Positions 12,499 to 61,484 of a stretch of DNA of 64,000 bases are shown one piece after another. A model generated the notes under the pieces. It had not been told where the DNA came from. It made no database searches and saw nothing but the letters and a program-made list of their open reading frames with translations. Source of the stretch: a virus; the IMG/VR virus record IMGVR_UViG_3300005563_000030, positions 61,102 to 125,101 of that record; one strand, 5' to 3'. Each line of letters opens with the position of its first letter. The first letter of the stretch is position 1. Position numbers and translations under genes: made by a program.

Positions 12499-14586
12499 TT
12501 ACATTCTTGTTCCTAATGTGCGCATAGCATGTTGACTAGCTGCAAAAGGACTAGTTGATTTAGCAAATCCTGACATTGTCATAGCAAACGGAGAACTTAA
12601 GATTGGATTCTTTCTTTGATTGTCAGGTTTCTCAGGTTCTTTAATATTTATTATCGGATAATATTTATCAAGATGTCTAGCATAAGCCAGAGCGTGGCGG
12701 AAAGCCACAATGCGGTCGTAGTTACCTTCTTCAGGGTTGTATTTTATAATTTCTTGAAGTAATACAGGATCAAGAATACGAGTTACACCTAATTTATATA
12801 TAGGTTCTCTTGTATCAGGGTGTGTACCCACTTGAATCTGTTCTTTACAATACTCAATCATTAGCGACATACAGTAGTTAATGTTTGGTAGTGTTGGAGA
12901 TAATCCATATATTTTACCACCTTGGTTAGCTCTGGTGTTTGGATTAATCTCTTTTGCAATGTTAAATCCTTGACCTAACATGTGTCCTTTATTCTTACGC
13001 TCAAAGTATTGAATAAATGTACCCGCAGCGTTCTCTGGAAAGCAGACGGCATTATAATATTCTAGTAGCATTTCTACTTGTTCATGCCAATCATTCATTG
13101 AGTTTGGACGTGAAGCTAGCGCAGCAACAGGCATGTCTTGATAGGTTTCTCCAGCCACATCTGTCATACGTTTCCATAGAACAACTGTACCTAAAGAGTC
13201 TGACCAGTCGGAAATGTCATTGTTGTAAGGGTCAGCTCCCGCAATATACAAACCTCGTGGTGCATTTGAGATAGGCTCTTCCCATATAACCACTGGACAA
13301 TCTTTTCCGAGATTCCCTTTGGTTGGAAATTCACTGATGGGTCTGTCATGAGATACTGCATAACTAGTTCTAACTTTTCCAGCCGAATCTCTGAAGAATC
13401 TAACATATCTACCTGTAATATTATTTGCGTTTAAATAATCTAAGTGACTTCTAGCTGCTTCTATTGGGAATGGATTAATTGCATTAGATAAGAAACATTC
13501 TGCTGGAGTAAGTGGATAATACATTATCAACTTTTGGTACTCCACTTTATCAGGGTCTTTAGATTTCTCTTCGCGTTCTTTTAGAATGAGAGCCTTAGCT
13601 TTCTCCTTATCAGAAACCATCATAGGGATCTGATCTAAGTTAGGAGTAGCCCAGTCTATCTTCCCTTCTTTTCTGAGATAATCACCAAGTGTAGTGAGAT
13701 ATTTACAGTCAATACGATATAATCCTGACATGAAAATAGCTGTCTCTCGTCCTGTCTCAGGATCAGTTACAGCTAATAAGTTGTTTGCACTAGGATTAAA
13801 GAAGAAACGTTCAGCATCAGCTCCTTTATCAAAGCTACCACCGGTTCCGAAAAGAAGAGGTACACATCTCCATCCGAACTTGGACTTAAATGCTGGTTTA
13901 GCAGCTTCAAATGATTGAGCAAAAGCAAATTTACCAACTTCATCGGTAGCATAGGCTTTCGCAGTAACACCCGCTGGACCTTCTGTTTTGTTACCTTCTG
14001 ATACGTTACGAACAATTAAGTAAGACCAAACATGGTCATCACCACCTTTAGCTTTGAACCCTAAGCGGGTCATGTTCTTCTTAGTATCTTTATCTAGCTT
14101 TGGAATTTGTAATCCTTTCCAAAGATTCTTAATACCAAAATCAATCTTATCACGGATAAGTTGTAAGTCATCATCATTACCACCCACCACTACATTCTGT
14201 GTGTGTTCAAAGAGTTCAGCATGATAGCCCATATAAGAAGCCATAATCTCACTCTTTCCAAACTGACGCACTCCAATGTGCATATATCCTTTCTTCTCAA
14301 CACGACATTGTTCAAGATATTGACCTACTTCCCACTCATTATCTCTACAGGAAGCGAGCATTTTCTTTCTCTGTATATTACCATACTCATCCTCAACGTC
14401 ATCACGAATATTCCAATGGTTTAAATGCCAATAGAGCCACCCCGATATATCTACATTATCGAGAGTGACTCCACCCATACACTTGTCTATTTCCCATTGA
14501 ACTAGTTCTTCAAATTCAGGAGTACCTTCTACCGGAAGACTTTCCATCCTTGAAAAGAAGTCATTAATAGAATTAATCTTCAGCAT
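12499..14586 (-). CDS. terL: Terminase large subunit
   Basis: 695 aa; Walker A-like RQFGKS, Walker B DEVGK, GTGG, nuclease YIAGADPY and NYDRIVA motifs. Confidence 0.9.
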   Translation of the reverse strand: MLKINSINDFFSRMESLPVEGTPEFEELVQWEIDKCMGGVTLDNVDISGWLYWHLNHWNIRDDVEDEYGNIQRKKMLASCRDNEWEVGQYLEQCRVEKKGYMHIGVRQFGKSEIMASYMGYHAELFEHTQNVVVGGNDDDLQLIRDKIDFGIKNLWKGLQIPKLDKDTKKNMTRLGFKAKGGDDHVWSYLIVRNVSEGNKTEGPAGVTAKAYATDEVGKFAFAQSFEAAKPAFKSKFGWRCVPLLFGTGGSFDKGADAERFFFNPSANNLLAVTDPETGRETAIFMSGLYRIDCKYLTTLGDYLRKEGKIDWATPNLDQIPMMVSDKEKAKALILKEREEKSKDPDKVEYQKLIMYYPLTPAECFLSNAINPFPIEAARSHLDYLNANNITGRYVRFFRDSAGKVRTSYAVSHDRPISEFPTKGNLGKDCPVVIWEEPISNAPRGLYIAGADPYNNDISDWSDSLGTVVLWKRMTDVAGETYQDMPVAALASRPNSMNDWHEQVEMLLEYYNAVCFPENAAGTFIQYFERKNKGHMLGQGFNIAKEINPNTRANQGGKIYGLSPTLPNINYCMSLMIEYCKEQIQVGTHPDTREPIYKLGVTRILDPVLLQEIIKYNPEEGNYDRIVAFRHALAYARHLDKYYPIINIKEPEKPDNQRKNPILSSPFAMTMSGFAKSTSPFAASQHAMRTLGTRM

Positions 14587-14899
14587 TATTTCTCATTCTA
14601 TGAGGCACATCTCCACCACCACGTACTTCTTTTATGGCAGCAGCTTCTTTCTCACGAAGTTTTTCTACTACCTCGCACATAGCAAGGTATTCCTTCATGG
14701 TTTCACGTAGTGATTTTTGAATAGCCTCTTTAGTTTGTACTACAGCGTAATAAGCTCCACCATTTTTAGTTTTCATTAATTCCTTACGATCCTCTACTTC
14801 ATTGTAGGGGTTATCTAGTAAGTATTGTTTCCAGCGAGCTAATTGTTCTTCTGCAAGTTCTAGCTCTGCTGATATGTATAAGTTTTTCTTAACAGCCAT
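14573..14899 (-). CDS. Possible terminase small subunit
   Basis: 108 aa helical protein ending ...EVRGGG, overlapping terL start. Confidence 0.4.
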   Translation of the reverse strand: MAVKKNLYISAELELAEEQLARWKQYLLDNPYNEVEDRKELMKTKNGGAYYAVVQTKEAIQKSLRETMKEYLAMCEVVEKLREKEAAAIKEVRGGGDVPHRMRNNAED

Positions 14900-15215
14900 A
14901 TGGTTTTACTTCAGTTACGCGATAATATTTAGTATTAAATTTCCTTACTTTGACTATTTTTCCATTATAGTAGTAGTCTTCTACCCAGTTTTTATTTTTC
15001 ACAAAAAGTGGATCTGGTTGTTTTGGGAAGATTTGATAGTCTGTATTGATTTCATCTTTTTCAATTTCCATATCTTCTATATCTGAATAGAAGGAAGGAT
15101 CTTCAAGACGCATATCGTATTCGATAGCAAACTTCCCAATAGCCATCATAAACCCAGCATAGATAAAGTCATTATCCGTATAACTAGGTTTACACATTTC
15201 ATGTATCTCTTCCAT
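14889..15215 (-). CDS. Hypothetical protein
   Basis: 108 aa ORF. Confidence 0.55.
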   Translation of the reverse strand: MEEIHEMCKPSYTDNDFIYAGFMMAIGKFAIEYDMRLEDPSFYSDIEDMEIEKDEINTDYQIFPKQPDPLFVKNKNWVEDYYYNGKIVKVRKFNTKYYRVTEVKPYGC

Positions 15216-15228
15216 TGGTTTTTATTTG

Positions 15229-15300
15229 AGCACATAGGAAGAATCGAACTTCCGCATAACTGTTTTGCAGACAGCGACCTTACCACTTGGCTATACGTGC
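15229..15300 (-). tRNA. tRNA-Cys(GCA)
   Basis: GCACGTA/TATGTGC acceptor, loop CT-GCA-AA, GTTCGATTC T-loop, U73. Confidence 0.9.
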
Positions 15301-15659
15301 TTATTTACGAATAGCTTTTTCTTAATAACATAATCGAATATCTTCTCATTTATAAATCCTGATAAGAAGGCTCTAGCTTCTCCATCATTTACATCCTTAT
15401 CTTCTAATATGTAATCTACTAAATGAGAAATTTCATGAGTTATTATATTTACATTTAAACTCTCTTCTGAAAAGAAGACATAGTAGGTATGAAAATTATT
15501 TGGATTTATAGCCATTCCATGAAGATCATGGTCATCTTCTATATTAAATTCCCATTTCTCTCGCTTACTATATGAGTTTATCTTCTTACGAATGTCTTTG
15601 TCTATTATGACAATACACTTAAGTTGATAAACTTCTATCGGAATCACTAGTCTGAGCAT
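15291..15659 (-). CDS. Small HExxH metallopeptidase-like protein
   Basis: 122 aa with ITHEISH...EARAF. Confidence 0.55.
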   Translation of the reverse strand: MLRLVIPIEVYQLKCIVIIDKDIRKKINSYSKREKWEFNIEDDHDLHGMAINPNNFHTYYVFFSEESLNVNIITHEISHLVDYILEDKDVNDGEARAFLSGFINEKIFDYVIKKKLFVNKHV

Positions 15660-15826
15660 CTTCTGATAAGTCTAAGATCATGAATTTATAACTTTCCAAA
15701 GGATACTTTGATTCTTCTTTAGGTTCACCAAATATAGCCTTTCTTGATTCAGGACTCATAAGTTCATAGAATAACCCCATAATTGCAGCCTGATCGTATA
15801 TCTCTTCTTCCATGTAATTAGTTAAG

Positions 15827-15900
15827 TTGCGGGAGCGGGGATCGAACCCGCGTCATTTAGCTTATGAGACTAAGCTGGAACCTCTCCAGTCCACCCCGCA
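15827..15900 (-). tRNA. tRNA-Met(CAT), initiator-like acceptor stem
   Basis: TGCGGGG/TCCCGCA acceptor, loop CT-CAT-AA, GTTCGATCC T-loop; lacks the three G-C anticodon-stem pairs of canonical fMet. Confidence 0.85.
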
Positions 15901-16432
15901 ATTTTTAATCTTCTAAATATTCTCTCCAAGTCTTCGGTTTGTATCTATCTATTGCTTCATCATTACGTTTCTTGAACTCCTCAGCAGAAATAATACCTAG
16001 CCGAAATCCCCATTCAACATTAGTGAGATACATATCTCTCATTAACATCTTCTCTTTGTTCTTTATGTGTGCTTGGGTCATCATAAAGAGTATATCGTAC
16101 TCCACTTTCTTTTCCAATTTCTTCTTGTAACATCATTTCTAAGAACCTCATTGCGTCATTGTACCTCGCAGTGAGTTGTTCAATAATATAATTCTCAGAC
16201 ATACCTAAAGCTCTCCAATTATCAATTTCGTCTTGTAGGTAGTGGTTAACAATATTATTCATCTTCCTTAATATTATCTACTAACTCGTTCTCTAATTCA
16301 TCGCGATATTTCTCAAACTTCCTCAAAAGCTCTGTATCACTCCAGCCGTAACATCCTGTTTGTGGGCGAAGAATATGTACCATATGTTGCGCAATGGTAT
16401 ACTGAGGAAACAATTCCACGATCTCTGCAAAG

Positions 16433-16888
16433 TTATGGAATATCTGTGACTTTGTCTGAATCTGTTTGTTGCTCATTTTCTTGGTTTTTAAATGCGAACC
16501 ATTTAGGTTCCAGTGTTATATTGTTTTTTGTGTTGTACTCTTTTACGTTTGGTTTTGCACATCCGCATTCTGTTCCCGGATTGCAACATGATAATCCACA
16601 ATCTGATGATAATGATGATGTTTTTCTATTAATTGAACATCCACACATAACGCAATGCTCATCAATTCTGTTTGTTATATACCCATCACTAACTGCATTC
16701 GAGCTGCTGAACGGGCACGTCGAGCATATCAGTCTTCTCCTCACTATCTCCTGTTGTTCTTCCTCTGGTAACATCCCCAACTCGTTCTTCACTTGTGTTA
16801 TTGTCGCTTCCAAGATTGCTGGTGCGTTGCTCACTATTGTCGGCAGCAACGTCACGTACTCTACTAATCCTTTTAGTGTAATTTTCAT
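16433..16888 (-). CDS. Cys-rich (zinc-binding) hypothetical protein
   Basis: RRLICSTCP...HCVMCGC...KW motif. Confidence 0.65.
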   Translation of the reverse strand: MKITLKGLVEYVTLLPTIVSNAPAILEATITQVKNELGMLPEEEQQEIVRRRLICSTCPFSSSNAVSDGYITNRIDEHCVMCGCSINRKTSSLSSDCGLSCCNPGTECGCAKPNVKEYNTKNNITLEPKWFAFKNQENEQQTDSDKVTDIP

Positions 16889-17222
16889 AGAACTGTTTAG
16901 CTAATATATTTCTTTGTTTAAGAGCTTTTCTTAGCTTATCATAGTTTAATTCCAGAAGCAATTCAGTTGTTGATTGCTTATATCTGGTAGATTTTCGGAT
17001 ATTCCTTATCTTTCTAATAAGAGTAATAATCATCTGGTCTACTTTACGCTTAGAAACTGTTATAGTTCCAATATGCTTAATAGAAACAGATGTATAGTCC
17101 ATAGATGATAGAGCAGCTCTCACGCCAACCTTCCAGAAAAAAGCATTTACATCTTCTACAAGGTCAGGATCAAGGTTATTCTCTCTAGCTACCAACTTAG
17201 AAACTATATGAATATCCTTCAT
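16689..17222 (-). CDS. Possible HU/IHF-like DNA-binding protein
   Basis: Basic protein with VSIKHIGTITV strand motif; position upstream of terminase as in crAss-like phages. Confidence 0.4.
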   Translation of the reverse strand: MKDIHIVSKLVARENNLDPDLVEDVNAFFWKVGVRAALSSMDYTSVSIKHIGTITVSKRKVDQMIITLIRKIRNIRKSTRYKQSTTELLLELNYDKLRKALKQRNILAKQFYENYTKRISRVRDVAADNSEQRTSNLGSDNNTSEERVGDVTRGRTTGDSEEKTDMLDVPVQQLECS

Positions 17223-17563
17223 TAATTATTATCAATTTTAATAAGAACTCCCATAGTTGGAGTAAGCCCAAAGTCTAACTCTTTTCTAAGTGAGTATTCT
17301 TTACTGTCTACATTTCTAATCAGCATTCCAAATTTCTTCAACTTAGATAGAGTATTTTTAAGACTATCATCAGACTTTAGTATACCTGCATTTAGTATAA
17401 GGTCTTTAGTTTTTCTATTGATCTTATAAACCATAAAATATGCAAGTACTGTTAACTCTGTGTCTGAGAGCTTAACATTCATAAGTAAACAGAAGATATT
17501 AATTAATACCTTAGCTTGTTCTACTTTACTATTGGTTTTCTTTTTTATCTTTACTAGTTGCAT
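17222..17563 (-). CDS. Hypothetical protein (possible winged-helix DNA binder)
   Basis: Likely ATG start at 17563 just after promoter 17572-17603; LSDTELTVL...NTLSKLKKFGML. Confidence 0.55.
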   Translation of the reverse strand: MQLVKIKKKTNSKVEQAKVLINIFCLLMNVKLSDTELTVLAYFMVYKINRKTKDLILNAGILKSDDSLKNTLSKLKKFGMLIRNVDSKEYSLRKELDFGLTPTMGVLIKIDNN

Positions 17564-17571
17564 ATTCAGTA

Positions 17572-17603
17572 CAAATATAGAGATATTATTGCAATTTACC
17601 AAA
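17572..17603 (-). promoter_or_regulatory. Bacteroidota primary-sigma promoter
   Basis: TTTG-N20-TATATTTG. Confidence 0.75.
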
Positions 17604-17774
17604 TTTATTTTATCTCCATCCCTTCTTCTCCAGAACTTTCTATTAGCTGCTCTCGCGAACAACGAATAGTAGGTGAGTCACTGAGCGTTACACTTCTGCT
17701 GCTCCGCGAAGTACGAAGCTACGAAAAATTTCTGACATTTTCATCAATTTCGTAAACTATTTTTTAAAATAAAT

Positions 17775-17797
17775 AAAAAAGCCCCAATTAAGGGGCT
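17775..17797 (-). terminator. Intrinsic terminator closing the tRNA array
   Basis: AGCCCC-TTAATT-GGGGCTTTTTT immediately after tRNA-Trp. Confidence 0.8.
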
Positions 17798-17801
17798 ATT
17801 G

Positions 17802-17873
17802 CACGGGATGATGGTCTCGAACCACCGACACAGGTTTTGGAGACTAGCATTTTACCAACTAAACTAATCCCGT
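17802..17873 (-). tRNA. tRNA-Trp(CCA)
   Basis: ACGGGAT/ATCCCGT acceptor, loop CT-CCA-AA, GTTCGAGAC. Confidence 0.88.
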
Positions 17874-17874
17874 A

Positions 17875-17970
17875 GGTAGCCTGCGTAATAAGATACTTTT
17901 CGCGTAGTCCCAGGTTTACGCTTGAAGGGTCAGGTAAATCCCACATATCTCCTATACTATTCTCAGGCTC
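17875..17970 (-). ncRNA. Unclassified structured RNA inside tRNA operon
   Basis: AGCCTG/CAGGCT closing stem, AGATAT/GTATCT, GTGG/CTAC, TTTAC/GTAAA; ends ...CAGGCT-ACC. Confidence 0.45.
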
Positions 17971-18041
17971 TGGGTGAAGTGCAGGATCGAACTGCTTCTC
18001 CAGCTTCACATGCTAGCGCTTTTCCAGTAAGCTATCTTCAC
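17971..18041 (-). tRNA. tRNA-His(GTG)
   Basis: CTAGC-AT-GTG-AA-GCTGG anticodon arm, GTTCGATCC, ends CTTCACCCA; acceptor/T junction slightly irregular. Confidence 0.85.
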
Positions 18042-18043
18042 AG

Positions 18044-18114
18044 ATGCTCGTGATCGAATCGGACGACCTTCTCCGAGGTCAAAACTCGGTGTGATACCAA
18101 TATACCAACGAGCA
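18044..18114 (-). tRNA. tRNA-Gln(TTG)
   Basis: TGCTCGT/ACGAGCA acceptor, CCGAG-TT-TTG-AC-CTCGG, variant T-loop GTCCGATTC. Confidence 0.85.
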
Positions 18115-18122
18115 TTATATAG

Positions 18123-18195
18123 TGGGGTTCTCTGGTTACGATCCAGATCCTCCAGTTTTTCAGACTGGTGCTTCTACCAAGTTAGCTTGAACTCC
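18123..18195 (-). tRNA. tRNA-Phe(GAA)
   Basis: CCAGT-CT-GAA-AA-ACTGG, variant T-loop GATCGTAAC. Confidence 0.88.
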
Positions 18196-18200
18196 AAATG

Positions 18201-18274
18201 AGCCTGTGGTCGGAGTTGAACCGACAACCTTTCCCTTACAAGGGGACTGCTCCGCCAATTGAGCTACAGCAGGC
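18201..18274 (-). tRNA. tRNA-Thr(TGT)
   Basis: Loop CT-TGT-AA, GTTCAACTC; one bulged base in acceptor stem. Confidence 0.88.
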
Positions 18275-18280
18275 ATTGTG

Positions 18281-18375
18281 CTAATGGGGTACGACTTGAA
18301 CGACAAGCGGAGGTTAATCCCTGATTCCGCGCCGGATAGACAATCCGGTATGTCTGCCAATTTCACCACCCATTA
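18281..18375 (-). tRNA. Atypical tRNA with Asp anticodon (GTC) and long variable arm
   Basis: TAATGGG/CCCATTA-G acceptor, Leu-like D-arm TGGTGAAATTGGCAGACA, CCGGA-TT-GTC-TA-TCCGG, about 26-nt variable arm, GTTCAAGTC T-loop. Confidence 0.7.
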
Positions 18376-18380
18376 GTGTG

Positions 18381-18452
18381 CGGGAACGGAAGGGGTCGAA
18401 CCTTCAACCTACCGGTTAACAGCCGGTTGCTCTACCATTGAGCTACATTCCC
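18381..18452 (-). tRNA. tRNA-Asn(GTT)
   Basis: ACCGG-CT-GTT-AA-CCGGT, canonical D and T arms. Confidence 0.93.
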
Positions 18453-18504
18453 TGGTCGGCTCCGATTTTTTATACAGAACGTTGCCGAAGTAAACTGTTG
18501 ATCG

Positions 18505-18580
18505 CCGACTATCACGGATTTGAACCGAGGATCTCCTCTTAGACAGAGAGGCAGGGACGACCAGACTCCCCTAATAGTCG
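18505..18580 (-). tRNA. tRNA-Asp(GTC)
   Basis: CGACTAT/ATAGTCG-G acceptor, CCTCT-CT-GTC-TA-AGAGG, GTTCAAATC. Confidence 0.88.
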
Positions 18581-18621
18581 AGGTGAAGGTTCCTTCCTGG
18601 AGTATACCTACAACTATGCAG

Positions 18622-18696
18622 TCAGGGTAGCTGGATTTGAACCAGCGAACACGTGCTTCCAAGGCACGCCCATATAGCCATCTGTGGAACACCCTG
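18622..18696 (-). tRNA. tRNA-Pro(TGG)
   Basis: CAGGGTG/TACCCTG-A acceptor, CGTGC-CT-TGG-AA-GCACG. Confidence 0.88.
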
Positions 18697-18701
18697 ATAA
18701 T

Positions 18702-18727
18702 AAAAAACCCCCGGTGAAAACCGAGGG
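18702..18727 (-). terminator. Attenuator terminator of tRNA operon A
   Basis: CCCTCGG-TTTTCA-CCGGGGG-TTTTTT, 5 nt upstream of tRNA-Pro. Confidence 0.85.
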
Positions 18728-18757
18728 AAACTTTCAATTATGACAAATTTTCTTGAA

Positions 18758-18844
18758 TTACTTATTTTGGCATAATGTTCCCTCATCGAGATCTTGTTGA
18801 TCCGGTGTGAAATTATTAAACGTATTATGCCAATTGTTAATCAT
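18758..18844 (-). CDS. Attenuator leader peptide A (MINNWHNTFNNFTPDQQDLDEGTLCQNK)
   Basis: 28-aa ORF between promoter and terminator; codons 3-18 encode only N,W,H,T,F,P,D,Q, the amino acids of the downstream tRNAs. Confidence 0.85.
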   Translation of the reverse strand: MINNWHNTFNNFTPDQQDLDEGTLCQNK

Positions 18845-18848
18845 AAAA

Positions 18849-18880
18849 CAAAGATAAGTAAAATATTTGAAACTACCAAA
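18849..18880 (-). promoter_or_regulatory. Promoter of tRNA operon A
   Basis: TTTG-N20-TATCTTTG, 4 nt before leader ATG. Confidence 0.8.
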
Positions 18881-18895
18881 TATTCTTAAAAGAAG

Positions 18896-18979
18896 TCGAT
18901 GCAGAGAGATTTGAACTCCCATAGCCGAATGGCGACAGTTTTACAGACTGCTGATTTCAACCCACTTACCATTACATCG
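18896..18979 (-). tRNA. tRNA-Tyr(GTA), C1-G72
   Basis: CGATGTA/TGCATCG-A acceptor, loop CT-GTA-AA, long variable arm GCCATTCGGC. Confidence 0.85.
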
Positions 18980-19048
18980 AGATAGCTGTCTATTCCAGCT
19001 TGTCAAACCCTTTTTATTTCATACTACGTCGCCGAGATACACGACCTG

Positions 19049-19137
19049 CGGAAAGAAGAGGAACCGACCCCCACCCGATTTAACGAGACCTAGTTTTCAA
19101 GACTAGTCGGCGCTCCAATGCACCTGCTTTTCTTTCC
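19049..19137 (-). tRNA. tRNA-Ser(TGA)
   Basis: GGAAAGA/TCTTTCC-G acceptor, loop CT-TGA-AA, long variable arm, variant T-loop GGTCGGTTC. Confidence 0.82.
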
Positions 19138-19141
19138 AGAG

Positions 19142-19227
19142 CGGAGAACAGTGGCCCTGATCCACATACGTTCGATGACGTACCACCTCTTTAGCAGAGA
19201 GGGCATACCCTAGTATGTCTATTCTCC
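19142..19227 (-). tRNA. tRNA-Ser(GCT)
   Basis: GGAGAAT/GTTCTCC-G acceptor, CCTCT-CT-GCT-AA-AGAGG, long variable arm, highly variant T-loop GATCAGGGC. Confidence 0.78.
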
Positions 19228-19232
19228 AAATG

Positions 19233-19306
19233 TACTCCTAGTCAGATTTGAACTGACACTTGACAGATTTTAAGTCTGTTGACTCTCCCTGTTGGTCTAT
19301 AGGAGC
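19233..19306 (-). tRNA. tRNA-Leu(TAA), short variable loop
   Basis: ACAGA-CT-TAA-AA-TCTGT, GTTCAAATC, A73. Confidence 0.88.
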
Positions 19307-19382
19307 TGGTAGCTACGGTGAGATTTGAACTCACACTAAATAGTTTCTAAGACTATTGCCTCTCCCATTGGGCTACGTAGCC
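19307..19382 (-). tRNA. tRNA-Leu(TAG), short variable loop, encoded CCA
   Basis: ATAGT-CT-TAG-AA-ACTAT, GTTCAAATC, ends ACCA. Confidence 0.9.
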
Positions 19383-19389
19383 ATAAAAT

Positions 19390-19420
19390 AAAAAACCCCC
19401 ACTTATGAATAAGCAGGGGG
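19390..19420 (-). terminator. Attenuator terminator of tRNA operon B
   Basis: CCCCCTGCTTA-TTCA-TAAGTGGGGG-TTTTTT just upstream of tRNA-Leu(TAG). Confidence 0.85.
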
Positions 19421-19446
19421 TAAACTAAAAACGGAAAAAAGTATCT

Positions 19447-19530
19447 TTATATTCCGACAATAAGCCCCCCTGCCACAGGATAACTGAGACTAGATAAATA
19501 GGAGAGTAAATATTGCTTCACGAATTTCAT
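19447..19530 (-). CDS. Attenuator leader peptide B (MKFVKQYLLSYLSSLSYPVAGGLIVGI)
   Basis: 27-aa ORF; codons 7-17 encode only Y,L,S, the amino acids of the downstream tRNAs. Confidence 0.85.
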   Translation of the reverse strand: MKFVKQYLLSYLSSLSYPVAGGLIVGI

Positions 19531-19534
19531 AACA

Positions 19535-19566
19535 CGAAGATAGGAAAACTTTTTCAATTTTCCAAA
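19535..19566 (-). promoter_or_regulatory. Promoter of tRNA operon B
   Basis: TTTG-N20-TATCTTCG, 4 nt before leader ATG. Confidence 0.75.
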
Positions 19567-19700
19567 TTTTCATTTATTGAATAAGTACGATCACATAAAT
19601 CGCAGTAATAAACTGGTCCTAGATTTTCTCCGAACACTCCAATCTCATCTATAATTATGAATTGTTCATTACATTCAGGACATCTGTTTTCTGATTTCAT
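19554..19700 (-). CDS. Small zinc-ribbon protein (48 aa)
   Basis: MKSENRCPEC...YYCDLCDRTY; two CxxC motifs; ATG right after tRNA-Ala. Confidence 0.6.
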   Translation of the reverse strand: MKSENRCPECNEQFIIIDEIGVFGENLGPVYYCDLCDRTYSINENLEN

Positions 19701-19702
19701 AG

Positions 19703-19772
19703 TGGACACAGTGGGAATCGAACCCAAAAGTTCTCCTTGCAAGGGAGACTGCCTACCGTTGGCATCTGGCCC
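19703..19772 (-). tRNA. tRNA-Ala(TGC)
   Basis: TCTCC-CT-TGC-AA-GGAGA, G3.U70, GTTCGATTC. Confidence 0.85.
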
Positions 19773-19777
19773 AGAAG

Positions 19778-19850
19778 TAGGAAGTCTGAGAATCGAACTC
19801 AGGAGTCCACTTTGTAAGAGTGGCATATTAAACCTCTGTATGAACTTCCT
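19778..19850 (-). tRNA. tRNA-Val(TAC)
   Basis: AGGAAGT/ACTTCCT-A acceptor, CCACT-CT-TAC-AA-AGTGG. Confidence 0.87.
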
Positions 19851-19853
19851 ATG

Positions 19854-19926
19854 TCGCTGAGGGAAGAGTCGAACTTCCAGTCTTACACGTATCAGGCGTC
19901 TGCGTTAACCATTACGCTACTCAGCG
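19854..19926 (-). tRNA. tRNA-Ile(GAT)
   Basis: CGCTGAG/CTCAGCG-A acceptor, loop CT-GAT-AC. Confidence 0.87.
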
Positions 19927-19928
19927 GG

Positions 19929-20000
19929 TTGGCTCTAAGGGGGTTGAACCCTTATCCTTCTCGTTATGAGCGAGCTGCTCCACCTTTGAGCTAAGAGCCG
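19929..20000 (-). tRNA. tRNA with CAT anticodon, probably Ile2 (lysidine) rather than Met
   Basis: CTCG-CT-CAT-AA-CGAG; sits next to Ile(GAT); the operon leader has an ATA codon and no internal ATG. Confidence 0.75.
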
Positions 20001-20005
20001 ATATG

Positions 20006-20077
20006 TACTCTCGAAGGGTTTCGATCCCTCTTCTACACCTTGAAAGGGTGTCATCCTAGCCACTAGACGACGAGAGC
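20006..20077 (-). tRNA. tRNA-Glu(TTC)
   Basis: ACACC-CT-TTC-AA-GGTGT, Glu-type D-arm TCGTCTAGTGGCTAGGA, T-loop GATCGAAAC. Confidence 0.88.
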
Positions 20078-20126
20078 TGGTGTACAGACTATCACTGACC
20101 TTGGTAACTGACTTTCACAGATTTTG

Positions 20127-20197
20127 TGCGCTACTGGGGAGTCGAACCCCACCCCTCTGATTGGAAGTCAGATAGACTACCGAAATCCTTGTAACGC
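20127..20197 (-). tRNA. tRNA-Gly(TCC)
   Basis: GCG start, TCTGA-CT-TCC-AA-TCAGA, GTTCGACTC. Confidence 0.87.
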
Positions 20198-20204
20198 ATA
20201 TAAG

Positions 20205-20277
20205 AAGAGCTGGAGGGATTCAAACCCCCGACGTTCTGTTTAGAAAACAGACATTCTGTTCCCTGAATTACAGCTCT
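20205..20277 (-). tRNA. tRNA-Arg(TCT)
   Basis: AGAGCTG/CAGCTCT acceptor, TCTGT-TT-TCT-AA-ACAGA. Confidence 0.85.
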
Positions 20278-20278
20278 G

Positions 20279-20352
20279 AGGACTAGGAGCGAGTCGAACG
20301 CTCATGTTCCCGCTTCGTAGGCGGGAGCTCTATCCAGTTAAGCTACCAGTCC
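20279..20352 (-). tRNA. tRNA-Arg(ACG)
   Basis: CCCGC-CT-ACG-AA-GCGGG, canonical D and T arms. Confidence 0.92.
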
Positions 20353-20361
20353 TTATTTATG

Positions 20362-20432
20362 TACCCCCGCACGGTAACGATCCGTGTTCTACTGGTTAAA
20401 AGCCAGTAGCTTCACCTTAAAGCTTCGAGGGT
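20362..20432 (-). tRNA. tRNA-Lys(TTT)
   Basis: ACTGG-CT-TTT-AA-CCAGT, variant T-loop GATCGTTAC. Confidence 0.87.
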
Positions 20433-20434
20433 AT

Positions 20435-20474
20435 AAAAACCAAAACCCCCAAGCTTCTTTAAGGCTCAGGGGTT
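20435..20474 (-). terminator. Attenuator terminator of tRNA operon C
   Basis: AACCCCTGAGC-CTTAAAGAA-GCTTGGGGGTT-TTGGTTTTT immediately upstream of tRNA-Lys. Confidence 0.8.
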
Positions 20475-20503
20475 CGATGTTATGACACACATTAATTAAG
20501 TCA

Positions 20504-20581
20504 TTAGCAAATAGAACCACCTGAGCCACATTTGACAATGCGCTCTGCTCCTCTACCCGCTATAATGACTAATAAACTCAT
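20504..20581 (-). CDS. Attenuator leader peptide C (MSLLVIIAGRGAERIVKCGSGGSIC)
   Basis: 25-aa ORF; codons 5-17 encode only V,I,A,G,R,E,K, the amino acids of the downstream tRNAs. Confidence 0.85.
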   Translation of the reverse strand: MSLLVIIAGRGAERIVKCGSGGSIC

Positions 20582-20598
20582 TTCTTTAAATTATAATA

Positions 20599-20630
20599 CA
20601 AATATACGAAAACTTTTTTACAATTCCAAA
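20599..20630 (-). promoter_or_regulatory. Promoter of tRNA operon C
   Basis: TTTG-N20-TATATTTG, 17 nt before leader ATG. Confidence 0.8.
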
Positions 20631-21016
20631 TCTTCTTCATCACCTTCTATACTTTCGTCTTCAGGAATGTCATCTTCATAATCCAAAGGTGTGCAATCCA
20701 TAATCTGTACACCCATTTGTTCCATATACAATTCCATGAAATCTGAGAAACCTGCTTTTACTATTAAAGAACTCTCAGCCTTTCTGAAATGAATTGTGAC
20801 ATGATCCTTTTCTTTAGCTCTATTAAAGTGATGAATATCTTTTAAATCAAATACTACAGGACCATATTCATGCACAATATCCATCATAATCATGCTATCT
20901 TCTGGACCTTCATCTCCATTAATGAGACGGTTTAATTCTGCTTCTTCCCGGTTAGCTTGACTATTACGAGGAGCAAGCTCCGACCATCTCGCTAACATTT
21001 TTACAATTGTACTCAT
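20618..21016 (-). CDS. Hypothetical acidic protein
   Basis: 132 aa ORF. Confidence 0.65.
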   Translation of the reverse strand: MSTIVKMLARWSELAPRNSQANREEAELNRLINGDEGPEDSMIMMDIVHEYGPVVFDLKDIHHFNRAKEKDHVTIHFRKAESSLIVKAGFSDFMELYMEQMGVQIMDCTPLDYEDDIPEDESIEGDEEDLEL

Positions 21017-21276
21017 TTTTCTAAGTTTAATATTTTTGAAAGATCACCATCTGTTTTCTCTATAATCTCAATTAATGTATTAATATTTGATGAAGAAATA
21101 GGCTCTTTCTTTCCATTAAAGTAATCGAGGTAATCCTCTCTAGTAAACGCACACCATTTATGGGTGTATATATTATAGTGGAATAACCACTTATAAAGGT
21201 TTGTATTATTCATATTTTGCTTATTCATATGATATTCAAGTAGTTCTAAAGACTTTCTATAAATATTGTAATTCAT
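21013..21276 (-). CDS. Hypothetical protein
   Basis: WLFHYNIYTHKWCAFTR-containing ORF; start placed after promoter 21280-21311. Confidence 0.55.
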   Translation of the reverse strand: MNYNIYRKSLELLEYHMNKQNMNNTNLYKWLFHYNIYTHKWCAFTREDYLDYFNGKKEPISSSNINTLIEIIEKTDGDLSKILNLEK

Positions 21277-21279
21277 ATA

Positions 21280-21311
21280 CAAATGTACACAGAATAGTTG
21301 AAAACTCCAAA
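21280..21311 (-). promoter_or_regulatory. Bacteroidota-type promoter
   Basis: TTTG-N20-TACATTTG. Confidence 0.7.
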
Positions 21312-21511
21312 TAAAAAAGGAAGTATTTCTACTTCCTACTGTACTATTAATAAATACATATCTTTTACACACTGTTCAGTGAGGGTGAATGGGTGGCAAT
21401 CCCCCACTCTAGTAAGTCTAAATAGCTTTCTCTCTTTGTCATAATCCTGTATTAGATAGTGTGTGTAATTGTCATCAATTACTACATCATTAATTCCTGC
21501 CTTTAGTTCAT

Positions 21512-57083: not shown

Positions 57084-57468
57084 TGCCAAGGTTGCAGATA
57101 GAAGTATTTACGTGCTCAAGAGCTCCTATGGTGGAGCTTTTGGGCGCGTATTCATAAGTTCTCTGCAAGCCTTCTGTTATCTAAATGGTAACACTTATAA
57201 GAAGAAGTGGTATGATAAATTCGTTGCTTATTTCAGAAAAAATTTGGAGTGGCAAGTGTTTCATGCCCATGATATAGAAACATCAAAGAGTTATGTCAAA
57301 CAATTTAGTCAGCTTAGTTCAGAAGTTCAATTTGGTATTTTCGTAATACCGCAAGGTACAAAATATTACGAAGGTAATAACGATGACCTTGGCTCTTTTG
57401 CTATAAGGTATTACGGTCCGTTACACCTTGGAAACAAACATTTAATTTTAAATCAATAATTGTCAATT

Positions 57469-59973
57469 ATGTGTGGAATATTCGGTTTCAGTGCTAATCC
57501 CGCCATCATGAATAGAACGATGGCTAAGTTAGTTTTAAATAAGATAAAAATTCTTGGTATGTATAACATTGACAGGGGTAAACACTCTTGCGGTTTATAC
57601 ATTAATGACCAAATCATCAAAGGCGTTGATGACTTAAAAATCTTCTCTGATTTTATTGCAAAGAAATGGCTGCCTGATGCTACCAAGAGTGGAAATTACA
57701 CTATCATGGGCCATACTAGAGCTGCTACCGTTGGTTCTCACACTGCTGCAAATGCTCACCCGTTCCTAGTAGATGATCGCTTTGTACTTGCCCACAATGG
57801 TGGTATAAAGAATATCTGGGAGCTATGCGATAAACACGGCGTTGATTATACCAACATCGACGTAGACAGCCATGCACTTGCCCACCTTATATATAAGAAA
57901 GGATTTAAAGTTCTTGAGGAATATAAAGGTTTTGCTGCACTGCTTATGGCTTATCGTGATAATCCTAATATTCTGCACTTCTATCGTGGTTCTTCTAAAA
58001 GATACCAGATGGCTCAAGCAATTGAAGAAGAAAGACCCCTATATTATTTACAAGCGAATGAAGGTGTCTATCTTAGCTCAATTGAAAAGAGCTTAATGGC
58101 TATTTCTGACGAAGAAGCCGATGAGATTCAGATTGTACCTGCTAGTACAGTGTTTACAATCGAAAACGGTCAAGTAAACGAAGATTGTGTTTATATTGAT
58201 CGTGGTGTATCAAACTATGGTATTTATCAAAATACAACTACTTGCGACCCAAAGCGGGTAGGGGTCATAAAAGCTACGAATTCTACCCCAGCGACTGGGA
58301 TAGGTGGAACGATTGGGACTAGCCTTTCTGACTCCAGAAATAACCTCGAAAAAATTGTTCCTGTTATCTGGCATGAAGGCTTACCTAGCCGTATTTCTCG
58401 CTGGAAGTTCAATGAAGGTATAATCTATCATCTAGGGCGTTTCTGGATCGTTGATAATCAAAATATTCGTCCTGCTAATGGCGCTTATTATGCTAACAAT
58501 AAAGGTCGTATAACACCTGACCGTAAACCCAACCGGTTCTTCCTTGACGGAGTTATGATGAAAAACCAGAAGGCTTATGAAATGGCTAAAGTAGATCCTA
58601 ATATAGCCAATCCTAACTGGAACTATATGATGTTCATGAGTAAATATTCTGAATATCCTATATGTGCGACACGTATGGACATTAATAATAAATGTAAAGA
58701 CGTGCCACCTCATTCTAAATATCGTTGGTATGAGAATGAAGCTCAAGTAGGTAATAAGTCCTTCACCCCAATGTTCTCTGATCGCCATTATGCTATTAAG
58801 GAAGGTCTTTTAGATAAGATTATAGCCTCGAAAACAATAGAGAAAGAAGTTCTGATTAATCAGGAATCTCTCGCTGCCGAACGTAAGGCTGTTGAAGACC
58901 TAAAAGCTAAATCTTCTTTAGTAGTTGTTCATGGCCCAAAGTCAGACCTGAAAGAAGAAGGGGAGGCTCGTTTGAACGTTGGTTCTGTTGTTGATGATGT
59001 TTTGGTTAACACCGTTAAACTCTCTGAGTTTATCAAAAAGAACAACTTCAACAACGAACTGCCATTCAAAGATGAGAAAATAAAAATCTTCAAAGGAGAT
59101 GATCTGGATGTAACAACCTTTCACATGAAGTTTGAAAGTGTAGATCAGGCTCTTGAGACATTCACTCGTGAAGAGCAACGTGCTATTCGTTACTTCATAG
59201 CTGATGTAATGACCAGTGATGGCGTATGCAAAGTGTATAACGTGTATGAAGACACAGTGGACATGCAATTCAAAATGTTCTTACAGCTTTGTATAGATAA
59301 TGATGCAACTGTTGTGGATAATTGGAATCAGGATGAGTTCAATGATATTCCACACTATTTAGTCACCGCCAAAAACAATGTAGATGGTTCTTATATTGAT
59401 TATGTTGATAACGAAGAAGTTGAAGATCAATCTTCCTCTTGCTGCTATGTTCCCCCTAAACCTGAAAAGAAGGTAATGGGTGTTCAGCAGGGATGGTTTG
59501 TTATGGACACTGATGAGGCTGAATTGTTAAATGCAGCTAAAGCTAGTGACGATGAAGAACCACCTTTTATTGATCTTGTTTACGAAAGAGAAAAACGTAA
59601 GTTCACAGAGTATATGGGTATTCAAGTATTGGAAGATAATACCGACTCTCAGGAGGTAGATGAGGAAGAACATGGCTTTCGTCTCCAAGAAACGTTCAAG
59701 CCTGTTGCAGACATCTCAAACACTTTTGATGACGATGAAGAAGAGAAGTCAATTGCTTTTGAAGAAACTGTGGATTCACTCTTAAAAGCAAGGGATGAGG
59801 CTGATGCGTTCCAAGCTTTAGTAAATGATGATTTCAGTCAGGAAATCGCTTATACTTTGTATCGCGGTATTGATCCAATTCTACAGGAATTGCAGAATGT
59901 TGCCGAAAAGTACAAAGAAAAGAAGTCAGAAGATTACATTAAACGTAACATTAAAGAAAGAGTTAACTCATGA
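57469..59973 (+). CDS. Class II (Ntn) glutamine amidotransferase with long acidic C-terminal extension
   Basis: MCGIFG, RGKHSCG, GHTRAAT, NAHPF, AHNG, VDS. Confidence 0.85.
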   Translation: MCGIFGFSANPAIMNRTMAKLVLNKIKILGMYNIDRGKHSCGLYINDQIIKGVDDLKIFSDFIAKKWLPDATKSGNYTIMGHTRAATVGSHTAANAHPFLVDDRFVLAHNGGIKNIWELCDKHGVDYTNIDVDSHALAHLIYKKGFKVLEEYKGFAALLMAYRDNPNILHFYRGSSKRYQMAQAIEEERPLYYLQANEGVYLSSIEKSLMAISDEEADEIQIVPASTVFTIENGQVNEDCVYIDRGVSNYGIYQNTTTCDPKRVGVIKATNSTPATGIGGTIGTSLSDSRNNLEKIVPVIWHEGLPSRISRWKFNEGIIYHLGRFWIVDNQNIRPANGAYYANNKGRITPDRKPNRFFLDGVMMKNQKAYEMAKVDPNIANPNWNYMMFMSKYSEYPICATRMDINNKCKDVPPHSKYRWYENEAQVGNKSFTPMFSDRHYAIKEGLLDKIIASKTIEKEVLINQESLAAERKAVEDLKAKSSLVVVHGPKSDLKEEGEARLNVGSVVDDVLVNTVKLSEFIKKNNFNNELPFKDEKIKIFKGDDLDVTTFHMKFESVDQALETFTREEQRAIRYFIADVMTSDGVCKVYNVYEDTVDMQFKMFLQLCIDNDATVVDNWNQDEFNDIPHYLVTAKNNVDGSYIDYVDNEEVEDQSSSCCYVPPKPEKKVMGVQQGWFVMDTDEAELLNAAKASDDEEPPFIDLVYEREKRKFTEYMGIQVLEDNTDSQEVDEEEHGFRLQETFKPVADISNTFDDDEEEKSIAFEETVDSLLKARDEADAFQALVNDDFSQEIAYTLYRGIDPILQELQNVAEKYKEKKSEDYIKRNIKERVNS

Positions 59974-61484
59974 TCCGCTTTAAAGATAACCCAAATTTAG
60001 AGGACAGAAAAGTGAAAACTGTCCGGGGCTTGACAGAATATAGAAAGAATTGTCGCAACATTCGTGACAAATGGTATGTTAAGGATGAAGACTGTTTCCT
60101 GATAAACGGTAAATGGCATACATATACTTCTAAAGAGATCACGCTGGATCATGAAACAGGTAAGTATAAACCTATTAGTAAAGACCTAGTTTATGGAGTT
60201 GTTGGATTTAAAGAGTCCGACAGCTCTGCTATTCTTGGATATTTTACAGGGAATGTGTATAACAATCTCACTGTAACTATTCCTGAATATGGCAAGGTCA
60301 AAACTGTCAATGAATCTATTCTTCTCCAGAATGGATATATTGAAAGTATTAATAGCGGTGCGTGGCTTCTGAAGAAAAATCTGTCAGCTCGTGATCTTGA
60401 AAGGCTCGACAAGATTGATAGTCAGAAAGTGGCTACAAACAAAGGATATAATATTGAAGACAACAAAGAGGAATTCAAACAGAAAACCGAAGCCTTCAAT
60501 AAATATCCAGTGAAAATATCTGCCGCAGCAATGCGGTATGGTAAGATGCTGAGTGGTGTAACATTTGGCGCAGAAATTGAAACTACTAAAGGTATTGTTC
60601 CAGACCATATTCAAAACCGTACAGGTATTGTAGTATGCAGGGACGGTAGTATCAAAAATGCGGAATATGTCACCGTTCCTATGAACGGAGCCAAGGGTTT
60701 AGTTAATCTAAAATACCTGTCTAGCGAGTTGAGTAAACGAACCACGACAGGTATTGAGTGCAGTTTGCATTTCCATATTGGAAACCTGTCCAAAGACCGA
60801 CTGTTCATCGTGGCTCTGTATGCGCTTGCTTTGCGTATTCAGAATGAGATTTTTATGATGTTCCCATATTATAAAACTAAATGGGAAGGCATAAAACAAA
60901 AGGATTATAATCAGAAACTACGTAAACTCGGAATAGGCTTACTGAAACCCGGGATGAAGAAAGAGGAGTATCAGAAATATGTTGATGAAGCCTATTATCG
61001 AATCTTTACGTGGTTAAATGATGGTGTTCCGCCAGATGATAACTTCAATCGTGTGAACAATCATCACATGAAACAAAACAAGTGGGACAGAAAACAAAGA
61101 TATTTCTGGCTGAATTTCATGAATATGTTCTTTTCAGAACGTAGAACCATGGAATTCCGCCTGCATCACTGTACCTTAAATGGTCAGAAGATGGTGAATT
61201 GGTTGTTTATTTGTAACGCTGTTTGTCAGTATGCAGCTAACCATAGCGATGAAATTCTTTCTAGCGATAAAGCCATCACTCTTGATACGGTGCTGGAACA
61301 CTATAAAGAAACCTTCAAAACGCCACATGGTAAATTCCTTTCTGACTATCTGAAGGCTTATGTCAAAGATAGAAAGGATTATTTTGCTGCTGACGTGAAA
61401 CGTGGTGATTATGTTAGTCAGAAAGAAATGGATGACGACAAACAGTATGTATTCACGTATGAGGGCGTAAGCTGGCTATTCTAA
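59970..61484 (+). CDS. Putative amidoligase (COOH-NH2 ligase fold)
   Basis: FGAEIET, DGS, EYVT, CSLHFH, RYFWLN, TMEFRLH. Confidence 0.85.
   Translation: MIRFKDNPNLEDRKVKTVRGLTEYRKNCRNIRDKWYVKDEDCFLINGKWHTYTSKEITLDHETGKYKPISKDLVYGVVGFKESDSSAILGYFTGNVYNNLTVTIPEYGKVKTVNESILLQNGYIESINSGAWLLKKNLSARDLERLDKIDSQKVATNKGYNIEDNKEEFKQKTEAFNKYPVKISAAAMRYGKMLSGVTFGAEIETTKGIVPDHIQNRTGIVVCRDGSIKNAEYVTVPMNGAKGLVNLKYLSSELSKRTTTGIECSLHFHIGNLSKDRLFIVALYALALRIQNEIFMMFPYYKTKWEGIKQKDYNQKLRKLGIGLLKPGMKKEEYQKYVDEAYYRIFTWLNDGVPPDDNFNRVNNHHMKQNKWDRKQRYFWLNFMNMFFSERRTMEFRLHHCTLNGQKMVNWLFICNAVCQYAANHSDEILSSDKAITLDTVLEHYKETFKTPHGKFLSDYLKAYVKDRKDYFAADVKRGDYVSQKEMDDDKQYVFTYEGVSWLF

Follow-up and report, generated by a model that had tools for sequence, protein, structure and literature searches.

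Transcription attenuators of the enterobacterial amino-acid operons (trpL, hisL, pheL and leuL, and the multivalent thrL and ilvL) consist of a short open reading frame (ORF) with clustered codons, a 1:2 hairpin, a 2:3 antiterminator and a 3:4 terminator, and they work through coupled translation. In trp, the terminator is more stable than the antiterminator, and the choice between the two is kinetic. The pheM leader of pheST (phenylalanyl-tRNA synthetase) in Escherichia coli places a component of translation under attenuation by the supply of charged transfer RNA (tRNA), and T-box riboswitches sense tRNA status through a choice between terminator and antiterminator. Here we describe unit A, a leader ORF and intrinsic terminator preceding nine tRNA or tRNA-like genes, in 64,000 nucleotides (nt) of viral DNA (positions 61,102 to 125,101 of IMG/VR record IMGVR_UViG_3300005563_000030; hereafter the window). 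We consider it likely that unit A acts as a ribosome-mediated (leader-peptide) transcription attenuator, which would sense decoding speed or tRNA supply and feed back on tRNA synthesis. From the anatomy, run statistics and co-variation that we observe, we infer that the ORF is translated, where its transcript starts, how it switches and what it senses.

Unit A shares the short ORF with clustered codons, the 1:2 hairpin, the alternative antiterminator and terminator, and presumed coupling to translation with the enterobacterial attenuators. It differs from them in its output, nine tRNA or tRNA-like genes rather than genes for amino-acid biosynthesis, transport or synthetases, and in its breadth, with eight amino acids in a single run (12 in unit L019_2 of a relative) versus one to three. 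Unlike them, it is also phage-borne and probably leaderless, with a Bacteroidota-type promoter. The likeness to pheM lies in attenuation of a translation component by charged-tRNA supply; however, pheM takes in one amino acid and puts out a protein, and the molecule that it senses is not its product. T-boxes bind uncharged tRNA directly and contain no ORF; to our knowledge, they do not control tRNA genes. An Rfam search of 14500-21500 at E ≤ 1 returned tRNAs and weak chance matches only, with no leader family and no T-box.

The regulation of phage tRNA genes is largely unknown, and why phages carry such genes is debated. The tRNA genes of phage T5 were reportedly found in the 1980s to have small ORFs among them. 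A literature search covering titles, the beginnings of abstracts and some passages, with the older T5 work outside its scope, found no description of leader-peptide control of tRNA genes, and the terms 'tRNA gene', 'tRNA operon' and 'Bacteroidetes' do not occur in PMC2965389. If the proposed function is correct, a leader testing the codons of its own tRNAs would tie tRNA supply directly to demand by feedback. With 8 inputs here and 12 in the relative, its multivalence would exceed that of any attenuator described, and it would extend classical attenuation to leaderless messenger RNAs (mRNAs) in Bacteroidota-type phages, whose hosts lack Shine-Dalgarno initiation. Compact sensors of codon-specific decoding speed are a possible use.

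Leader ORF, tRNA block and promoter of unit A

Unit A lies on the minus strand, as do all attenuator features, inside a tRNA cluster (15228-20432) with 23 genes called by ARAGORN. Its leader ORF comprises 28 codons and a stop, from the ATG at 18844 to the TAA at 18760-18758, and 30 nt separate the TAA from the intrinsic terminator. The regulated block A (18696-17801, minus strand; ARAGORN and Rfam) contains, in order, genes for tRNA-Pro, Asp and Asn, an odd 96-nt tRNA-like gene, Thr, Phe, Gln and His, a spacer of ~100 nt, and Trp; a further terminator closes the block at about 17797-17775 (minus strand; terminator scan). Rfam confirmed the Pro, Asn, Thr, Phe, Gln, His and Trp genes. The Asp gene (18504-18580) and the odd gene were not listed by Rfam, even at E ≤ 1.

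Codons 3-18 of leader A (NNWHNTFNNFTPDQQD; 18838-18791, minus strand) encode only N, W, H, T, F, P, D and Q, that is, all eight amino acids of block A and no others. This correspondence had been claimed by a first-pass annotation of the same DNA, together with a leader ahead of nine tRNAs, and it stood up to our analysis: every element named there is present on the minus strand at the positions given here. Together, the eight amino acids make up a fraction of 0.334 of the residues in the long ORFs of the window, and six-frame translation of the window yields 26,094 runs composed of them. The 16-residue run of leader A is the longest (runner-up 9) and the only one holding all eight. Its local log-odds score was matched by 1 of 100,000 random peptides of equal length in a Monte-Carlo comparison. 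Across the whole leader, 20/27 residues belong to the set of its own block, compared with 2/27 and 4/27 for the sets of the two other leader-preceded blocks in the window (below), and the codons of all 20 in-set residues can be read by block A anticodons under strict wobble, the only rule used for such counts. In four DNA runs, the contigs recovered either matched the window exactly (X2) or were pieces of relatives, with no usable variation in leader A.

The odd gene of block A (18280-18375, minus strand) is 96 nt long and tRNA-like, with a long variable arm, and was labelled 'Asp (gtc)' by ARAGORN. It is conserved in the related contig L001 (6279-6375) with a different anticodon stem-loop (loop TTTTCTC in L001, TTGTCTA in the window), and in both genomes its position 37 is a T, an unusual base there in a tRNA. 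The spacer between tRNA-His and tRNA-Trp (17874-17971, minus strand) has neither a tRNA nor an Rfam match over ~100 nt; the corresponding gap in L001 is only 4 nt.

Upstream alignment and a TTTG-N17-21-TAnnTTTG pattern match at 18880 point to promoter P_A, with a -33-like TTTG at 18880-18877 and a -7 box, TATCTTTG, at 18856-18849 (minus strand). The motif TTTGGTA...TAnnTTTG also stands upstream of L001 units A and C, and the 4-nt spacing between -7 box and ATG is shared by window unit B, L001 units A and C, L017_1 and L042_1. According to passages of PMC6847099 and PMC9723704, the Bacteroidota -33/-7 consensus is TTTG/TAnnTTTG, with the -7 element at -12 to -5 and 4-5 nt from the start site. 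Combined with this published spacing, the 4-nt gap would put +1 on the A of the ATG, and the unit A mRNA is therefore probably leaderless. The first-pass annotation had likewise placed the ATG 4 nt past the -7 box and proposed a near-leaderless mRNA; TATCTTTG bears out the placement, and the proposal fits the published spacing. The promoter type also suggests a Bacteroidota host. A sigma-70 promoter scan found 17 sites versus 19.6 in shuffles, that is, no excess, and sigma-70 is not the relevant promoter type here.

Sister units and co-variation of leaders with tRNA sets

Two further units in the window repeat this arrangement on the minus strand. The unit B leader ORF (19530-19447; core YLLSYLSSLSY) precedes tRNA genes for Leu, Leu, Ser, Ser and Tyr, and its terminator (19419-19390; terminator scan and duplex energies) comprises a stem at 19419-19396 and a T-run. 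The unit C leader ORF (20581-20504; core VIIAGRGAERIVK) precedes genes for Lys, Arg, Arg, Gly, Glu, Met, Ile, Val and Ala, with a terminator (20472-20437; folds and duplex energies) made of a stem at 20472-20446 and a T-rich tail. By the run statistics used for leader A, the 11-residue run of unit B is the longest of 23,493 L/S/Y runs (six frames, window; runner-up 8), and the 13-residue run of unit C is second of 28,251, the longest lying within a real protein at 14656; each stands directly upstream of its matching tRNA block. Leaving Met aside, the longest run of each leader includes all amino acids of the block behind it (A 8/8, B 3/3, C 7/7); the longest runs for the other two sets span 0-4 residues. 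Leader C as a whole places 17/24 residues in its own set and 0/24 and 5/24 in the others. The whole unit B ORF is less clean (own set 12/26 versus 11/26 for set C), with V, A, G and I in its G-rich tail. This tail, VAGGLIVGI (19476-19447, minus strand), uses amino acids of block C, probably as a by-product of the G-rich antiterminator strand.

A terminase search retrieved 50 viral and 4 metagenome loci. With default ARAGORN settings, tRNA blocks upstream of the terminase were found only in L001/L056, L017, L019/L020, L041, L038/L039, L043, L012 and L042; upstream flanks are short at many loci, so missing tRNAs there are uninformative. We scored 21 units from 10 phages: the window, L001, L017, L019, L041, L039, L043, L042, Leptolyngbya phage Lbo-JY46 (L060) and Cellulophaga phage phi17:2 (L061). 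The terminases of the phages scored are 29-64% identical to that of the window. Units of L020, L038 and L056 are identical to those of L019, L039 and L001 and were counted once, and Glu-rich ORFs without a terminator in L017 and L019 were left out. The Monte-Carlo score gave p ≤ 0.005 in 19/21 units, most at 0-4 per 100,000 random peptides; JY46_1 reached 2,722/100,000 (0.027), and L042_1 failed (98,064/100,000). In L039, a Tyr-like gene after Ser was read by eye; without that gene, L039_1 ranks 5/15.

The leaders change with the blocks that they precede. L001_A (core QNWHNNTFNFQPDT) covers the same eight amino acids as the window (8/8). L041_2 (core FQHTRFWFTQPT) and JY46_3 (core TRQHTQFWFPT) each cover Pro, Thr, Phe, Gln, His, Arg and Trp (7/7 in both), L017_2 (core RNNWFNNAAAFTTTDCG) its nine tRNA amino acids (9/9) and L019_2 (core NNWFNIIDTAFATRNCGKVGI) its twelve (12/12). 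L043_1 (core HPQPQH) holds only Pro, Gln and His (3/3), and unit 1 of phi17:2 (core QRLHLQELEQP) holds Pro, Glu, Gln, His, Leu and Arg (6/6). Where Arg(acg) belongs to the Pro block, R appears in the leader (L017_1, L019_1, L041_2 and JY46_3), and a block extended by Cys, Lys, Ile, Val and Met has a leader extended by the same amino acids (L019_2).

These counts bear on the simplest alternative, in which the ORF is untranslated and its composition a coincidence, with promoter and terminator only separating transcription units. Leaderless mRNAs are indeed a minority in Flavobacteria, at 5.5% of mRNAs in F. psychrophilum according to a passage of PMC9723704, which lends this alternative some support. 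Nevertheless, chance would have to account for the longest run among tens of thousands, for two further units in the same window and for the agreement in 19 units across the phages scored, and the terminator stands between the sole promoter-like site and the tRNAs that it would delimit. We give this explanation almost no credence.

The design is carried by two isolated phages, Lbo-JY46 and phi17:2. Three such units are present in phi17:2, whose host is Cellulophaga baltica. Because phi17:2 is isolated and its host cultured, the proposed attenuation is testable at the bench. At the phi17:2 locus (NC_021798.1; 15258-15377 and 13335-13436), the 'hypothetical protein' gp077 is the unit 2 leader; gp078 overlaps a tRNA-Ser(tga) called by ARAGORN at relaxed thresholds and is therefore probably not a protein gene.

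Other relatives depart from the pattern. L042 (6212-6453) has a leader of the Pro/Gln/His/Arg/Leu/Ser/Tyr type, like L019_1, with terminator and antiterminator intact, followed only by a weak Pro gene and by Val and Gly genes; this looks like decay through loss of tRNAs. In L017 (from 5515) and L019 (from 2584), the short Glu-rich ORFs follow a -7 box and run directly into tRNA-Glu with no terminator, and translation may be coupled to the tRNA gene there in a terminator-free manner. A pattern search of viral contigs with the start of leader A gave five matches: one lies on the contig of L001, and the other four (L002, L003, L004 and L006) lack a matching tRNA block and were dropped as chance.

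RNA structures and the proposed switch

The minimum-energy fold of leader A contains both a 10-base-pair hairpin between TTGGCATAAT and ATTATGCCAA and the terminator. With -38.8 kcal/mol, the whole fold is more stable than expected (z = -3.6; 0/200 shuffles as good). Segment 1 (TTGGCATAAT; 18833-18824, minus strand) forms the 5' strand of this 1:2 hairpin. Segment 2, composed of GAGGGAAC and ATTATGCCAA (18784-18767, minus strand; folds and duplex energies), can pair with segment 1 or, alternatively, with segment 3 (18747-18723, minus strand; masked folds), the 3' strand of a two-part antiterminator, whose last 5 nt are the start of the terminator 5' arm. The intrinsic terminator (18727-18702, minus strand; -12.6 kcal/mol) was the top match of the terminator scan; its stem of 8 base pairs with a 4-nt loop (18727-18708) is followed by T6 (18707-18702), and it ends 5 nt before tRNA-Pro. 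Between GAGGGAAC (18784-18777) and GTTTCCCTC (18731-18723) there are seven contiguous Watson-Crick pairs with flanking wobble (-12.0 kcal/mol), compared with a mean of -6.7 kcal/mol for the same pairing in shuffled ORFs, 5/300 of which were equal or better (p = 0.017). The 1:2 hairpin, the T6 terminator and a GAGGGAAC/GTTTCCCTC pairing overlapping its 5' arm had all been proposed from the first inspection and are recovered here; the two-part antiterminator reuses ATTATGCCAA, which lengthens that pairing.

We propose the following sequence of events. Transcription would start at or beside the AUG, yielding a leaderless mRNA onto which a ribosome would load at once to read 16 codons for the eight amino acids of the downstream tRNAs. 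Where a charged tRNA is scarce, its codon would be read slowly and the ribosome would sit on segment 1, leaving segment 2 to pair with segment 3 and mask the 5' arm of the terminator, so that RNA polymerase would continue into the tRNA genes. During fast decoding, the ribosome would cover segment 2 when the terminator emerges, or the 1:2 hairpin would have re-paired behind it, and the terminator would form 5 nt before tRNA-Pro. If no ribosome loads, the 1:2 hairpin would form and transcription would terminate as well. Since the products are the very tRNAs tested, such a switch would amount to negative feedback on tRNA supply.

Folds with a masked ribosome are consistent with this scheme when taken as co-transcriptional snapshots, that is, on transcripts ending before the 3' arm of the terminator emerges. 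Sequestration of the 5' arm was 0.7-0.8 for A-site codons 2-12 and 14, 0.5 for T13 and D15, 0.4 for Q16 and 0.2 for codons 17-21, and only 0.20 without a ribosome. In masked folds (A site at codons 5-14), the 5' arm is sequestered by a two-part helix of transcript nt 61-79 with nt 98-122. Units B and C respond to the ribosome at equilibrium, unit A only in the snapshots (0.7-0.8 versus 0.2).

The same architecture recurs among the relatives. A hairpin with a U-run lies 22-43 nt past the stop codon and abuts the first tRNA in 18/18 units examined; this leaves no room for a promoter past the terminator, so the tRNAs would be made only by read-through. The 3' segment of the ORF complements the terminator 5' arm better than in shuffled ORFs (p ≤ 0.033) in 13/15 units, the exceptions being L017_2 (0.07) and L041_1 (0.24). 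When each arm was paired with every ORF as a control, its own ORF was the best partner in 8/18 units, with ~1 expected. L001 unit A forms an equivalent antiterminator pairing with different letters. Among the 15 units folded, segment 2 lies just beyond the regulatory run in every case, and 5'-arm sequestration always drops once the ribosome has passed that run.

Several results weigh against attenuation by tRNA supply. In the full-length equilibrium fold of unit A, the terminator has P ≥ 0.90 at every ribosome position, and forcing the antiterminator state with the ribosome at codon 8 costs 2.8 kcal/mol relative to the terminator state; given that equilibrium preference, the unit A switch would have to be kinetic, by kinetic trapping. 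Its antiterminator is the weakest of the three in the window and ranks 3/18 in cross-pairing (-12.0 versus a mean of -9.7 kcal/mol). The size of the ribosome footprint (a mask of -15/+12 nt around the A site) is assumed, and when the ribosome occupies the stop codon, the model once more permits a 7-base-pair pairing (0.8), which we discounted on steric grounds only. Stalling yields a sequestration of only 0.4 at Q16 and 0.2 at both Q17 and D18, and Gln has no better-placed codon. Beyond unit A, strict wobble is kept by only 7/12 in-set residues in leader B and 10/17 in leader C, and L042 keeps a leader of the matching type before a block without most of the matching tRNAs. Several tRNA blocks of relatives have no unit: the Asp block and the Ile-Ile-Ala block of L041, and that of L012, which starts inside an ORF beside the tRNAs. 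Finally, tRNA-Asp in the window was called by ARAGORN alone.

The equilibrium preference for the terminator would also suit a translated, matched leader that acts after transcription, on precursor processing or stability, with the hairpin serving as a signal for processing or as a leaky constitutive terminator. In L017 and L019, the Glu-rich ORFs that reach tRNA-Glu without a terminator point the same way, as a terminator-free mode may exist. This explanation is hard to reconcile with a segment 2 that complements the terminator 5' arm far above chance and sits just past the run in every unit folded, or with the equilibrium switching of units B and C, and we regard it as quite improbable.

A further alternative keeps the same hardware and changes only the signal: the leaders would report starvation for amino acids or the overall condition of host translation, with no feedback on tRNA supply. 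A ribosome stalls alike whether a tRNA is absent or uncharged, charging is what classical leaders respond to, and codon choice in units B and C is only loosely tied to the anticodons of their blocks. On the other hand, extra tRNA does not relieve starvation, which would leave the coupling without obvious benefit; moreover, the leaders of relatives track the tRNA gene content of each block, and all in-set codons of leader A fit the block anticodons under strict wobble. We therefore consider a starvation signal unlikely, if less so than action after transcription. Given an output of tRNA and not of biosynthetic enzymes, the quantity sensed by the proposed attenuator is more likely decoding capacity (tRNA supply) than amino-acid supply.

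Of the first-pass reading, which treated unit A as an amino-acid sensor and an eight-input OR gate, the attenuator hardware is retained, and the signal is revised to what is probably tRNA supply, given that the output is tRNA. The multi-input gate itself agrees with the attenuator anatomy, the match to the tRNA set, the sister units and the co-variation. Its Gln inputs are doubtful: the Gln codons (16 and 17) and D18 lie too near segment 2 in the model to serve well for stalling, and the functional inputs may in practice be seven rather than eight. More tentatively, the three units could together form a codon-resolved tRNA homeostat, in which three sensor-actuator modules test 19 amino acids and only the block for slow codons is induced. 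Such a system might double as a counter-defence alarm, with the matching block induced when an anticodon nuclease or another tRNA-depleting defence cuts host tRNA. We regard this extension as possible, though doubtful.

Genome setting and neighbouring features

The window, taken from the 125-kb record of an uncultured virus, encodes a terminase, a portal, a major head protein and a DNA polymerase. The terminase shares 44.6% identity with its counterpart in Lbo-JY46 and 24-31% with the terminases of crAss-like, Cellulophaga and Flavobacterium phages. At the DNA level, a megablast search of a phage collection gave no match, and blastn gave scattered tRNA-sized matches only.

To the ARAGORN calls in the tRNA cluster, Rfam adds a gene at 19703-19772, which we interpret as tRNA-Ala, and a weak match at 19050-19137, interpreted as tRNA-Ser(tga); both were called by ARAGORN at 85% of its thresholds. 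Blocks A, B and C and a tRNA-Cys gene (15228-15300) jointly cover all 20 amino acids. A tRNA-Met gene lies in block C, and a second, initiator-like Met gene stands separately. At 15826-15900 (minus strand), a gene labelled 'tRNA-???' by ARAGORN aligns to tRNA-Met (CAT) of L001 (9122-9196) and has CTCATAA in its anticodon loop; it is probably a Met tRNA with an enlarged D-loop, which we take to be initiator-like from its acceptor end.

Between tRNA-Ala and the unit B promoter (about 19554-19700, minus strand) lies a small ORF with two CxxC pairs, resembling a zinc ribbon. Elsewhere in the window, neighbouring genes at 57460-61484 (plus strand) encode glutamine amidotransferase-like and amidoligase-like proteins (PHROGs).

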